From: Vulcanimicrobiota bacterium
Lineage (GTDB): Bacteria > Vulcanimicrobiota > Vulcanimicrobiia > Vulcanimicrobiales > Vulcanimicrobiaceae
Length of the DNA: 35,481 bases
Direction of reading: 5' to 3'
NCBI GenBank assembly: GCA_003135555.1
Contig: PLCF01000043.1
Coordinates: 1-35,481 of the forward strand
Below, one piece after another: positions 39-20,070 of this stretch. Position 1 is the stretch's first letter. The number at the start of each line of letters is the position of its first letter. The notes under the pieces were generated by a model. That model worked only from the letters and a program-made list of their open reading frames with translations, searched no databases and was not told where the DNA came from. A program made the position numbers and the translations under genes.

Positions 39-68
39 TTGACGCGCGCGGTGGGGTTCTGGTACTGT
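39..68 (+). promoter_or_regulatory. sigma70-type promoter for met leader/operon
   Basis: TTGACG (39-44), 18 nt spacer, TACTGT (63-68) preceded by extended -10 TG (60-61); predicted TSS ~75, just before ATG at 78. Confidence 0.6.
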
Positions 69-77
69 GGCCCGACA

Positions 78-152
78 ATGAACGGACGCTGTATGGCGAT
101 TATGGCGATGTGTGCCTCCCGCGAGGGACGGTGTAGATCGTCGTCGCCCTGA
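78..152 (+). CDS. Met/Cys-rich attenuator leader peptide MNGRCMAIMAMCASREGRCRSSSP (24 aa)
   Basis: Hand-translated; 4 Met and 3 Cys (all TGT); directly upstream of a terminator and metY; 121-136 is complementary (14/16) to 169-184. Confidence 0.75.
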   Translation: MNGRCMAIMAMCASREGRCRSSSP

Positions 153-175
153 CCAGGCGGACGACAGACTACAGC

Positions 176-208
176 GGCCCTCGCCACTCGGCGGGGGCCT
201 TTTCGTTT
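176..208 (+). terminator. attenuator terminator upstream of metY
   Basis: GGCCCTCGCC-actc-GGCGGGGGCC stem (one G-U pair) followed by TTTTCGTTT. Confidence 0.85.
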
Positions 209-252
209 CCCACCCCCCTCTGCGCTCGACGCATTCGTGAAGGAGACCCACG

Positions 253-1551
253 ATGAGCAGCACCCTCGACCCCGCGGCGACCCGCGGCTTCGACACCGTC
301 GCCCTGCACGGCGGACACGGCGGTGACCCGACGACCAAGGCACGCGCCGTTCCGATCTACCAGACGACCTCGTACACCTTCGACGACACCGCCCACGCGG
401 AACGGCTCTTCTCGCTCCAAGAGTTCGGTAACATCTACACGCGGATCATGAATCCGACGACCGACGTGTTCGAGCAGCGCCTAGCGGCGCTGGAAGGCGG
501 TGTCGGCGCGCTGGCGCTCGCCAGCGGTCAGGCGGCGGTGATCTACTCGCTGCTTAATCTCGCCCGCGCCGGCGACCACATCGTCAGCTCGGCGTCGCTC
601 TACGGCGGAACGTACAACGCCTTCGTACACACGCTGCCGCGCTTTGGGATCGAGGTGACGCTGGTCGACGCGTCGGATCCGGCCGCATTCGAGGCGGCGG
701 TGCGGCCCAACACCAAGGCCATCTTCGCCGAGACGCTCGGCAATCCCAAGCTCGACGTGCTCGACGTCGCCGCGATCGCGCGGGTCGCGCACGACTGGGA
801 CGTGCCGCTCATCGTCGACAACACGCTCGCGACGCCGTACCTGTTGCGGCCGATCGAGCACGGCGCCGACATCGTCGTGCACTCGGCGACCAAGTTCATC
901 GGCGGTCACGGCACCACGATCGGCGGCGCGATCGTCGACTCGGGCACGTTCGACTGGAAGGCGTCGGGCCGGTTCCCCGATTTCGTGCAGCCGGATCCGT
1001 CGTACCACGGCGTCGTCTACACCGACGCGGTCGGCCCGCTCGCATACCTCGTCAAGGCGCGCGTGCAGCTGCTGCGGGACATCGGGGCGGCGCTCTCCCC
1101 GTTCAACGCCTGGCTGCTGTTGCAAGGACTCGAGACGCTGGGGCTGCGCGTCGAGCGGCACAGCGCGAACGCGCTGCGCACGGCGGAGTTTCTGCAGGCG
1201 CACCCCAAAGTGTTGTGGGTGCGCTATCCCGGCTTGCCGGACGATCCGGCGTACCCGCAAGCGCAGCGGTATCTCCCCAAGGGCGCCGGCGCGATCTTGA
1301 CCTTCGGCGTGAAGGGCGGCGCCGGCGCGGCGCGCGCGCTCATCGACCGGTTGGAGCTGTTCTCGCTGTTGGCCAACGTCGGTGACGCGAAGTCGCTGGT
1401 GATCCATCCCGCCTCGACGACGCACCAGCAGCTCAGCCCGGCCGATCAGATCGCCAGCGGCGTCAGCGACGATGCGGTGCGGCTCTCGGTGGGGATCGAG
1501 TCGATCGACGACATCCTGGCCGACTTGACGCAGGCGCTCGACGCGTCGTGA
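253..1551 (+). CDS. metY: O-acetylhomoserine sulfhydrylase (aminocarboxypropyltransferase), PLP-dependent
   Basis: [27 protein letters not shown] (PLP Lys), [10 protein letters not shown] motifs; RBS AAGGAG. Confidence 0.95.
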
Positions 1552-2645
1552 CCAGCCTGGCCCAGGGTGACATTGGGGCAGTAGTGGAGCGCGACGTCGG
1601 GATCGGCGCGCTCGACCTCGCGTCGGGCCAAACGCTCCCCGACGTCGTGCAGCGCGTCACGCGCTATGGGTGCGAACCGCTGCCCGACGGGTCGAACGTG
1701 GTGTTCGTGCCGCACGCGCTGAGCGGCTCGTCGCGCGTCCTCGAATGGTGGGACGGGATCGCCGGCGCCGGCGGACTGTTCGACACGGCGCAGTGGTGCG
1801 TCGTCGGAATCAACGTGCTCGGTGGTTGCTACGGTTCGACCGGGCCGTCGTCGCTCGCGCCGGACGGACGGCGCTGGGGGCCGCGCTTCCCCGTCGTCAC
1901 CATCGCGGACATCGTCGAGGCGGAACGGCGCGCGCTGCTGGAGATCGGGATCGAGCGTTTCGCGACCGTTATCAGCGGCTCGCTGGGCGGGCAGCAGGCG
2001 CTGCAGTGGGCGCGCGCGCACCCCGACCTCGTCGGCCAGGCGATCGTCGTCGGGACGTTCGACCATCTGCGCGCACAAGGGATTGCGCAAAACGGCGTCG
2101 CGCGCGATGCGATTCGGCTCGACCCGCGGTTCGAGGGCGGTTGGTACGAGGAGCCGCCCATCGACGGGTTGCGGCTGGCGCGCGCGATCGCGACCCTGAC
2201 GTACAAGAGCGAGGATCTGTTCGAGCGGCGCTACGGGAACCGAGCCGATCGCGCGGGCGGCGATCCGTCGCGCTCGCTCGACGCGCGCTTCGACGTCGAG
2301 GGGTATCTTGCGCACCAAGGCGATGTCTTCGTGCGGCGGTTCGACGCCAACAGCTACATCACGCTGACCCGGGCGATGGATTTGTTCGACTTGCGCGGGC
2401 GCGAGCGGCCGGCCGGGCGGACGCGGCTCACCTTCGTCGGCATCGAAGGCGATCAGCTCTACTCGCCGCAGTTCGTGTGGAGTTGCGCGGCGCGCTGGGC
2501 CGAGGCCGGCTGGGATTCCGAATACCGGCACTTGGAGAGCGACCACGGCCACGACGGATTCCTCGCGCACCCCCAAACATTGGCTGCGGTGTTGCGCGAA
2601 GGGCTCGAAACTGCGCGTCCCCCCGGCACGTTGAAGGGCTCGTGA
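1548..2645 (+). CDS. metX: homoserine O-acetyltransferase (MetX family)
   Basis: [17 protein letters not shown], nucleophile SGSLGG, RFDANSY, HGHDGFL; GTGA overlap with metY. Confidence 0.92.
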
Positions 2646-3649
2646 CCGAACGCGTTTTTCAGACCGCCCGGCACACGAGCACGTATCTCGAGAGCGGGCC
2701 GCCGGAGGGACCGCTCATGATCTTCGTGCACGGCTGGCCGGCGTTGTCGATCATGTGGCGCGCGCAGCTCGGGCATTTCGGCGCGCTGGGGTACCGCTGC
2801 GTCGCGCCGGACATGCGCGGCTACGGCGGCTCGAGCGTGCCGGCGCGTGCGGAGGACTATGCGCTCGAGGCGATCGTCGAAGACATGGTCGAGCTGCAAC
2901 GCGGGCTCGGAGCCGAGCGCGCGATTTGGGTCGGCCACGACTGGGGCGGTCCGGTCGTCTGGGCGCTGGCGGGGCATCATCCTGAGCTGTGCCGCGGCGC
3001 GGTGAGCTTGTGCGTCCCGTATTTCGCGCGAGGTTTCGCGCCGGATACGCTCGTGCCGCTGGTCGACCGCACGATCTACCCCGAACCAAAGTATCCCGCT
3101 GGTCAATGGGACTACCAGCTGTTCTACCAGACGTCGTTCGAGGCGGCGACCGCGGCGTTCGAAGCCGATCTGCCGGCCACGTTCAAGGCGTTGTTTCGGC
3201 GTGGCGACGTACGGGAGAAGGGCCGGCCCGCGCTCACAGCGCGGATCAATCGTGACGGCGGCTGGTTCGGCGGCGCCGGGCGCGCGCCCGATCTTCCCCG
3301 CGACCCTGCGGTCCTCTCGGAGGACGATCTGGCGCGCTACGTCGCCGCGTTCGAGCGTACGGGATTCTGGGGAGCCGACGCCTGGTACGTCAATCCCGCG
3401 CGCAACATGGGCTATGCGGCCCGCGCGCTTGACGGCGGGACGCTGCACTTGCCGGTGCTGTTCCTGCACGCCGCCTACGATGCCATCTGCGAAACGGTCG
3501 ACTCGCGCATGGCCGAACCGATGCGCCGCGATTGCCGCGATCTCACCGAGCACGTTCTCGAGACCGGGCACTGGATGGCGGCCGAGCAGCCCGCGCAGGT
3601 CAATGCGGCGCTCGAGACCTGGCTCGCCGCGAAACACAAGGCTTGGTAA
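2642..3649 (+). CDS. alpha/beta hydrolase, epoxide hydrolase-like (335 aa; start GTG 2642, not 1670)
   Basis: HGWP, PDMRGYG, GHDWGG nucleophile Asp, C-terminal TGHW; GTGA overlap with metX stop. Confidence 0.88.
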   Translation: MTERVFQTARHTSTYLESGPPEGPLMIFVHGWPALSIMWRAQLGHFGALGYRCVAPDMRGYGGSSVPARAEDYALEAIVEDMVELQRGLGAERAIWVGHDWGGPVVWALAGHHPELCRGAVSLCVPYFARGFAPDTLVPLVDRTIYPEPKYPAGQWDYQLFYQTSFEAATAAFEADLPATFKALFRRGDVREKGRPALTARINRDGGWFGGAGRAPDLPRDPAVLSEDDLARYVAAFERTGFWGADAWYVNPARNMGYAARALDGGTLHLPVLFLHAAYDAICETVDSRMAEPMRRDCRDLTEHVLETGHWMAAEQPAQVNAALETWLAAKHKAW

Positions 3650-3654
3650 ACCTC

Positions 3655-3683
3655 TTGCGCCGGCGCCTCAGGCATGGTAGGGT
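3655..3683 (+). promoter_or_regulatory. sigma70-type promoter for thr leader/hom
   Basis: TTGCGC (3655-3660), 17 nt spacer, TAGGGT (3678-3683) with TG at 3675-3676. Confidence 0.5.
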
Positions 3684-3692
3684 CGTCCAACG

Positions 3693-19603: not shown

Positions 19604-19619
19604 GAAATCCTCCGGAGAT

Positions 19620-19652
19620 AAAAAAGCCCCCCGCCTACCGGCGAGGGGCTTT
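19620..19652 (-). terminator. attenuator terminator upstream of ilvC
   Basis: minus strand AAAGCCCCTCGCC-ggta-GGCGGGGGGCTTT followed by TTT. Confidence 0.88.
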
Positions 19653-19679
19653 GCATTTGTGTGCGACTCTGTCGTCGTC

Positions 19680-19757
19680 TTATGCGAAAGCTGCTCGCCG
19701 GTTCGGGGGAACCGTAAGAAGGATAACGCCAAGAACGAGGACGAGCCGAGCGGACAT
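19680..19757 (-). CDS. ilvL: Leu/Val/Ile attenuator leader peptide [25 protein letters not shown] (25 aa)
   Basis: 5 Leu, 4 Val, 1 Ile, using CTT/GTT codons; CCGGCGAGcaGCTTTcGCAT pairs with the terminator 5' arm. Confidence 0.88.
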
Positions 19758-19766
19758 CGTTGCACG

Positions 19767-19795
19767 GTAGTACCACGACGGCCGGGTCCTGTCAA
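19767..19795 (-). promoter_or_regulatory. sigma70-type promoter for ilv-leu leader
   Basis: consensus TTGACA (19795-19790), 17 nt spacer, TG-n-TACTAC (-10 at 19772-19767). Confidence 0.65.
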
Positions 19796-19886
19796 CCCGC
19801 CGGACGGCCGCCGGTACCCGCCTTATCACGGAAAAAACTTTCGTAGCAGCCGGTGCGCGTTGGAAATCGCTCTCCGCCGGGCCGTG

Positions 19887-19915
19887 TTGACGCTGGGCCG
19901 GACGCATGGTACAGT
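19887..19915 (+). promoter_or_regulatory. sigma70-type promoter for ssu leader
   Basis: TTGACG (19887-19892), 17 nt spacer, TG-n-TACAGT (-10 at 19910-19915). Confidence 0.7.
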
Positions 19916-19926
19916 CCTACGCACTC

Positions 19927-20004
19927 GTGACCACGCGCCGCTGCTGTCTCATGCCGATTTTCATGTGCTGTCGCCCCATTCGGGATCGGCAAGGTTCGGC
20001 ATGA
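19927..20004 (+). CDS. Cys/Met attenuator leader peptide MTTRRCCLMPIFMCCRPIRDRQGSA (25 aa, GTG start)
   Basis: two TGC-TGT pairs and 2 internal Met; GGATCGGCAAGGTTC (19983-19997) pairs with 20036-20051. Confidence 0.75.
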   Translation: MTTRRCCLMPIFMCCRPIRDRQGSA

Positions 20005-20034
20005 GCTAGCGCGCGTCGCGCGCAGCACCACTGC

Positions 20035-20070
20035 AGAGCCCTCGCCGATCCGGCGGGGGCTCTTTATTTT
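20035..20070 (+). terminator. attenuator terminator upstream of ssuA
   Basis: AGAGCCCTCGCCG-atc-CGGCGGGGGCTCT followed by TTATTTT. Confidence 0.88.

Follow-up and report, generated by a model that had tools for sequence, protein, structure and literature searches.

How are genes for methionine, threonine, branched-chain amino acids, and sulfur uptake adjusted to amino acid supply in the Vulcanimicrobiota? The question is raised by contig PLCF01000043.1 of a Vulcanimicrobiota bacterium (GenBank assembly GCA_003135555.1), of which we analyzed positions 1 to 35,481 (the window). It carries four short open reading frames (ORFs), each lying between a promoter and an intrinsic terminator ahead of an operon: metYX, hom, ilvC-leu, or the SsuA-family transporter operon ssuACB. 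An original prediction, made from the bare sequence, had taken them for leader-peptide attenuators of one design, in which a stalled ribosome allows read-through and complete translation brings about termination. We consider it highly probable that all four are classical ribosome-mediated transcription attenuators, conserved and most likely functional; footprint geometry, folding probabilities, and conservation all argue for attenuation by read-through upon stalling. As modeled, they likely make expression follow tRNA charging: that of tRNA-Met and tRNA-Cys for metYX and the SsuA-family transporter, of tRNA-Thr, tRNA-Ile, and tRNA-Met for hom, and of tRNA-Leu, tRNA-Val, and tRNA-Ile for ilvC-leu. 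There is nothing unusual about the Thr/Ile and branched-chain members; the novelty lies in the Met/Cys leaders ahead of metYX and the sulfur uptake operon, in a near-leaderless cassette common to the leaders, and in a spread over three phyla.

Leader anatomy and conservation

Translation of the window's ORFs confirmed all four leaders at the positions predicted, with lengths of 24 (metY), 26 (hom), 25 (ilvC), and 25 (ssuA) codons. The control codons match the downstream pathway in each, as had been claimed, with one correction: the hom leader carries Met as well, which makes it a Thr/Ile/Met rather than a Thr/Ile leader. All four terminators carry a CCCTCGCC 5' arm, and their G+C hairpins begin 22 to 27 nt after the leader stop codon and are followed by a U-tract; the purine-rich ribosome-binding sites of the first genes sit 3' of the terminators. 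Each leader starts 9 to 11 nt after a sigma70-type -10 box with no Shine-Dalgarno sequence in between, so the transcripts are predicted from the DNA to be near-leaderless, with a 5' untranslated region (UTR) of 0 to 5 nt. The metY promoter layout is the same in 20 relatives, where the start falls 6 to 8 nt after the -10 box; 22 relatives give 6 to 10 nt for hom, and the spacing across leaders and relatives is 6 to 11 nt.

On the plus strand, the Met/Cys leader of metYX, MNGRCMAIMAMCASREGRCRSSSP (78 to 152; control codons C5 to C12 at 90 to 113), has a sigma70-type promoter (TTGACG, 18-nt spacer, TACTGT; 39 to 68) 9 nt before its ATG. Segments 2 and 3 of its RNA would pair as an antiterminator (2:3; 121 to 184, -40.5 kcal/mol), segments 3 and 4 form the intrinsic terminator with its U-tract (3:4; 176 to 208, hairpin 176 to 199), and metY (O-acetylhomoserine sulfhydrylase) and metX (homoserine O-acetyltransferase) follow at 253 to 2645. 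The Thr/Ile/Met leader of hom, MAAISMITTTTITTTLGEGRSGLTSA (3693 to 3773, plus strand; control codons 3702 to 3737), likewise has its promoter (TTGCGC-17-TAGGGT; 3655 to 3683) 9 nt before an ATG; a predicted antiterminator (3741 to 3807; -41.8 kcal/mol) and an intrinsic terminator with U-tract (3796 to 3832; hairpin 3796 to 3824) lead to hom, for homoserine dehydrogenase (3863 to 5062). The sequence and its relatives suggest that the true hom start is probably the GTG at 3875, behind GGAGG. Just 3' of the hom U-tract, at 3831 to 3841, the sequence targeted by the antiterminator occurs a second time, which it does not in the relatives compared.

The Leu/Val/Ile leader is on the minus strand (19680 to 19757; control codons 19745 to 19710), with a promoter (TTGACA-17-TACTAC; 19767 to 19795) 9 nt before the ATG, a predicted antiterminator (19637 to 19702; -32.0 kcal/mol), and an intrinsic terminator with U-tract (19615 to 19652; hairpin 19652 to 19623). 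It heads the operon ilvC-ilvB-(68-amino-acid ORF)-leuA-leuC-leuD-leuB (12005 to 19603, minus strand). The 68-amino-acid ORF (16683 to 16889, minus strand), between ilvB and leuA, had no NCBIfam match and, judged by its position, is probably a minimal acetolactate synthase regulatory subunit. On the plus strand, the Cys/Met leader of ssuACB, (GTG)TTRRCCLMPIFMCCRPIRDRQGSA (19927 to 20004; control codons 19942 to 19971), has its promoter (TTGACG-17-TACAGT; 19887 to 19915) 11 nt before the GTG, and its predicted antiterminator (19983 to 20051; -41.6 kcal/mol) and intrinsic terminator with U-tract (20035 to 20072; hairpin 20035 to 20063) precede ssuA, an ssuC-like gene, and an ssuB-like gene (20107 to 22536). 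ssuA scored above its family cut-off and the other two below theirs. As an aid to annotation, the Cys/Met leader marks the transporter as a likely importer of a sulfur source. The ilvC and ssu promoters point away from each other across about 90 nt (19767 to 19915), an arrangement that relatives do not share.

The leaders proved to be conserved in relatives. Among the genus loci listed (at most 30 per gene, with one locus dropped beforehand and a few genomes giving two loci), leader and hairpin are present in 23 of 24 for metY, 23 of 24 for hom, 25 of 27 for ilvC, and 24 of 25 for ssuA, the misses being truncated loci or failed start placements. The closest metY relatives, 87 to 90% identical among the best 80 of 561 matches, are labeled Vulcanimicrobiota/Eremiobacterota or Candidatus Elarobacter. 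For hom in the sister family, two loci had no leader and three more had no usable start. A second metY-like gene lies within about 5 kb after ssuA on the same strand in 14 of the 23 genus genomes with an ssuA match, which fits a sensor of Met plus Cys.

Control regions differ between relatives by codon-sized insertions and deletions, and they show the synonymous codon bias that Elf and Ehrenberg (2005, PMC1183508) describe as a mark of attenuators. In counts taken from related, and thus not independent, genomes, 99% of Leu codons in the ilvC leaders are CUY, read by one tRNA, compared to 45% in genes and 45% in intergenic DNA; Val codons there are 96% GUY (62% in genes, 58% in intergenic DNA), and Cys codons in the metY leaders are 76% UGU (12% and 31%, respectively).

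The leaders also stood out in genome-wide scans. The window's own genome is 84% complete and 68% G+C, and we called 3330 genes in it with a simple codon model. A scan of 1454 upstream regions yielded 71 terminator-like hairpins, 28 of them with a short ORF, and among these 28 the four leaders ranked 1, 2, 3, and 5 for clustering of amino acid codons. Rank 4 went to a Ser-rich 45-codon ORF on contig C58, and rank 6 to a further leader, rich in Tyr, at the head of aroA-aroE-aroC-aroK/B-aroQ. A promoter-anchored scan reduced 121 sites to six short ORFs, namely the four leaders, a leader before ilvE, and one ORF without a terminator. Both scans depend on the genes as we called them and overlook weak terminators; the upstream scan did not pick up ilvE, nor the promoter-anchored one aroA. 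The terminator motif is specific: in two near-complete relatives it matches 14 sites, and 11 of them belong to these attenuators.

Folding, ribosome position, and rival explanations

In the mechanism that we propose, transcription would begin 0 to 5 nt before the AUG or GUG and a ribosome would initiate without a Shine-Dalgarno sequence. When a cognate amino acid is scarce, the ribosome would stall in the control cluster with its leading edge not quite reaching segment 2; this would let the 2:3 antiterminator capture the CCCTCGCC arm, and RNA polymerase would read through. With ample supply, the ribosome would cross segment 2 to the stop codon, unzipping 2:3 and covering its inner half, the released antiterminator core would enter a 1:2 hairpin, and the 3:4 terminator would fire. 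Control of aroA-E-C-K/B-Q and ilvE here, and of ilvA in relatives, would follow the same design. The original prediction that complete translation masks the antiterminator holds for that inner half. The core itself sits 18 to 30 nt upstream of the leader stop codon, beyond the stretch that a terminating ribosome is assumed to occupy. Instead of simply being covered, the core is thus likely to be cleared by the passing ribosome together with the 1:2 hairpin; only in relatives with a short frame-shifted leader does the stop codon sit on the core.

Folding tests supported the predicted competition between antiterminator and terminator 5' arm. The two predicted folds are mutually exclusive, and in each of the four leaders none of 500 shuffles of the 5' strand gave a 2:3 domain as stable as the real one (-32 to -42 kcal/mol). 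The 1:2 hairpin reaches -24 to -33 kcal/mol in a transcript of ORF length. Across relatives, in a count that covered metY, ssuA, and ilvC, antiterminator cells are paired in 89% (metY, 21 sequences), 83% (ssuA), and 94% (ilvC, 22 sequences) of cases, mostly as invariant pairs, and the G+C hairpin of the terminator is 97 to 100% paired (metY and ssuA). Covariation is present in the metY 1:2 hairpin plus terminator (0 of 500 shuffles). At column 64 of the ssuA alignment, one base covaries with both of its partners, the one in the 1:2 hairpin and the one that 2:3 pairing gives it in the terminator loop, as would be expected of a switch.

The control codons also lie where such a switch would need them. 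With a ribosome footprint assumed to span -17 to +12, they fall at or before the last A-site that permits the antiterminator in 98 of 102 cases for metY, 229 of 240 for hom, 211 of 212 for ilvC, 139 of 140 for ssuA, and 42 of 42 for aroA, with median gaps of 0, 0, 1, 2, and 5 codons, respectively. The predicted threshold falls at codons 11 to 17. We repeated the folding for the genome's own six leaders without forcing the RNA behind the ribosome to be unpaired. The probability of the antiterminator core was then 0.70 to 1.00 with the ribosome stalled and 0.00 to 0.06 with it at the stop codon of hom, ilvC, ssuA, aroA, and ilvE.

Several results weigh against attenuation by the translating ribosome. 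The metY core retained a probability of 0.49 at the stop codon in these relaxed calculations, and the zero that the footprint model gives there is built in, since it keeps all RNA behind the ribosome unpaired. Ribosome-free equilibrium folding prefers the antiterminator in five of six leaders (0.81 to 1.00; ssuA, 0.36), so that termination would depend on kinetics. A duplex test confined to the terminator arm (14 to 17 nt) was not significant for metY (375 of 1000 shuffles) and weak for ssuA (43 of 1000); hom gave 19 of 1000 and ilvC 2 of 1000. Antiterminator covariation is weak for metY (15 to 29 of 500 shuffles), absent for ilvC (122 of 500 or more), and, for ssuA, anywhere from 4 to 421 of 500 depending on the measure. 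The relatives are all of one genus and hence not independent. Finally, a Streptomyces coelicolor ilvB leader of similar look was unaffected by codon substitution, according to Seliverstov 2005 (PMC1262725).

That precedent speaks for a conditional terminator under the control of a protein or small ligand, with the ORF secondary or setting only a basal level, and so does the way in which the distal RNA is kept while reading frame and stop shift. We nonetheless regard such a switch as unlikely: codons match the pathway in seven leader families, the control cluster ends at the footprint threshold, control regions vary by whole codons, and a search of the whole window with all Rfam families returned one tRNA only and no aptamer. 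Slightly less probable again is translational or Rho-dependent attenuation in the style of mycobacterial polycysteine leaders, in which ribosome occupancy would control a downstream ribosome-binding site or Rho site and the hairpin would be incidental. The leaders are near-leaderless like the mycobacterial ones, U-tracts are interrupted in some relatives, and the genome has a rho homologue (E value, 3e-124, below the curated cut-off), but the conservation of hairpin and U-tract and the position of the ribosome-binding sites downstream of the hairpin stand against this reading.

Sensing by an arrest peptide, as in TnaC, where the nascent chain rather than tRNA shortage would stall the ribosome, is very improbable. 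The C-terminal residues do look conserved within families (REGRCRSSSP, RRAAFA, RRASA), but the conservation lies at the RNA level: metY leaders end in REGRCRSSSP or, in 6 of 21, in PRGTV, read in a shifted frame from the same RNA, ssuA leaders terminate in three frames across relatives, and the stop codon varies. That the ORFs arose by chance beside ordinary terminators is scarcely credible. In a genome this rich in G+C, shuffled strands often pair with the core (probability of at least 0.5 in 162 to 422 of 500), but the scan ranks, the domain energies, and conservation throughout the genus contradict it. Attenuation by the translating ribosome is the reading that we carry forward.

A wider network and its relation to known systems

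The genome holds two further leaders. The Tyr-rich leader of aroA-E-C-K/B-Q (contig C22, upstream of aroA at 12892 to 14124, minus strand; locus L259) has counterparts in relatives that combine Tyr, Trp, and Phe; leader and hairpin occur in 14 of 22 genus loci, one miss being a contig end and seven lacking a leader. A Val/Ile/Leu leader precedes ilvE (contig C36, upstream of 4269 to 5186, minus strand; locus L258), and its terminator sequence differs from the shared one. Ile/Leu/Val leaders of ilvE occur in 16 of 21 genus loci and are collapsed or deleted in L260 and L284; those of relatives often add Tyr and Phe, which may reflect a dual role of the transaminase, and in the sister family all three ilvE loci have a different Ile/Leu/Val leader. 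In relatives, ilvA (threonine ammonia-lyase) has an Ile-rich leader resembling that of ilvC in all five loci (L204, minus strand, and L285 to L288); ilvA was not found in the window's own genome with the query used. Codon identity thus follows the downstream pathway in seven leader families. The metY-hom and ilvC-ilvA pairs are similar beyond the paired core (about 0.02 each, uncorrected; 2 of 21 family pairs), and their sequences suggest duplication. A common ancestry of all leaders was unsupported, the other family pairs sharing the terminator motif only.

The network is less uniform than originally predicted: the four leaders share one design, but the ilvE terminator departs from it, and some amino acid genes have no leader of this kind. 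None precedes trpE, the his genes (hisZ/G), trpS, or the operon heads of the nine PALP-family matches examined, out of ten (the tenth lies in the trp cluster). No synthetase-gene leader turned up, with arg, lys, phe, and synthetase genes covered by the genome-wide scans only.

The original prediction that attenuation stands in for T-boxes and S-adenosylmethionine (SAM) riboswitches in this lineage fared well. Covariance models for the T-box (RF00230) and SAM-I (RF00162) matched neither this genome nor any of 21 near-complete relatives, with 111 to 150 candidates scored per genome for SAM-I and positive controls for both; other SAM classes were covered in the window, within the search of all Rfam families. 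Met/Cys leaders with terminators also precede metY in all nine acidobacterial loci (L043, L045, L047, L050 to L053, L060, and L074) and, judged by reading the sequences, in 14 of 22 loci from Chloroflexota (L046, L049, L061, L066, and others). Each group has its own core sequence, which matches its own terminator arm, and Rfam assigned no family to the metY leaders of seven acidobacterial and Chloroflexota loci. Five other metY loci from Chloroflexota have a SAM-I-like leader, which Rfam confirmed for both of those submitted (L054 and L068), and Rfam placed a SAM-IV riboswitch before metY in an actinobacterial locus (L008). SAM riboswitches thus control the same gene elsewhere, but these riboswitches and T-boxes sense SAM or uncharged tRNA directly.

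Classical attenuators are those of the Escherichia coli trp, his, thr, leu, ilvGM, ilvBN, and pheA operons, and sensing of Thr/Ile and Leu/Val/Ile is textbook knowledge. The elements described here resemble them, as modeled by Elf and Ehrenberg (PMC1183508), in a short ORF of cognate codons, alternative 1:2, 2:3, and 3:4 hairpins, an intrinsic terminator, and synonymous bias. They differ in having no Shine-Dalgarno sequence, a 5' UTR predicted at 0 to 5 nt, an antiterminator core well inside the ORF, and Met/Cys sensing for biosynthetic and sulfur uptake operons, while trp and his are not covered.

Leaderless leader peptides are not new in principle. Deinococcus deserti has 14 predicted ones across its genome, among them Met-rich (metG), Cys (cysS), and Phe/Tyr/Trp (DAHP synthase) leaders and those of ilvB and asd, with attenuation predicted (de Groot 2014, PMC4007540). 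In the part of that report available to us, the Met and Cys leaders precede tRNA ligases and the set mostly synthetase genes, in contrast to metYX and a sulfur transporter here, and no common terminator or conserved structure is given. The mycobacterial Cys ribulon, in which leaderless polycysteine ORFs coordinate several sulfur operons, has been demonstrated experimentally (Canestrari, bioRxiv 10.1101/834739); the case dissected there is translational, works through Shine-Dalgarno pairing, has no intrinsic terminator, and senses Cys only, whereas the elements here have a conserved terminator with the Shine-Dalgarno sequence downstream of it. Also comparable are upstream ORFs (uORFs) for Cys, Phe, or branched-chain amino acids that likewise precede an intrinsic terminator: uORFC-8-2 (cysS, Rhodobacterales; a predicted attenuator) and uORFC-13-1 (aroF, Acholeplasma) (Brewer 2021, PMC8632094), the ilvB-II uORF of Corynebacterium (PMC10272879), and the Mycobacterium tuberculosis ilvB1 attenuator (PMC13236596). 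As far as the available parts of these reports go, they concern other genes and lineages, and none is a Met/Cys leader of metY or ssu. The available parts of PMC2965389, PMC4833913, and PMC11109978 contain no metY case either. The open literature yielded no described Met/Cys attenuator of metY or ssu, although closed-access papers and supplements could hold one; the nearest is the predicted D. deserti metG leader.

A broader reading is compatible with these observations, and we give it slightly less than an even chance. In three or more phyla (Vulcanimicrobiota, Acidobacteriota, and part of Chloroflexota), Met/Cys transcription attenuators would be a widespread, hitherto undescribed stand-in for SAM riboswitches. 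Within the genus, a seven-member near-leaderless network would have arisen by cassette copying and swaps of sensor codons, with metY/hom and ilvC/ilvA as visible copies, and read-through would be the default when initiation fails. Such a default, if true, would get around the difficulty that a shortage of methionine blocks initiation too. Apart from this broader reading, if the elements work as modeled, intrinsic-terminator attenuation of biosynthetic genes would gain methionine as one of its sensed amino acids. They would also explain the control of sulfur, aspartate-family, branched-chain, and shikimate genes in a lineage where searches for T-boxes and SAM-I came up empty. Short, modular, and provided with a common terminator, the leaders are ready-made reporters for near-leaderless, initiation-coupled attenuation and for effects of methionine starvation on initiation.

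Other features of the window and genome

The first 38 nt of a tRNA-Thr(CGT) gene (35132 to 35207) are repeated at 26113. Repeat and tRNA bracket a secretin-like gene (26466 to 29108) and an RHS-like gene (29257 to 34332), labels that come from reading the translations, and G+C content drops to 60%. The sequence makes it likely that positions 26113 to 35207 are an island integrated at tRNA-Thr(CGT). ARAGORN called one tRNA-SeC (TCA) and one tRNA-Pyl (CTA) in the whole genome, the latter of which may be an artefact. A GGAAAGGTCGAGAGACCCC leader motif before a terminator-like hairpin, unrelated to the attenuators, is common to locus L203 and to genome contig C53 upstream of position 4386 and is possibly a riboswitch.

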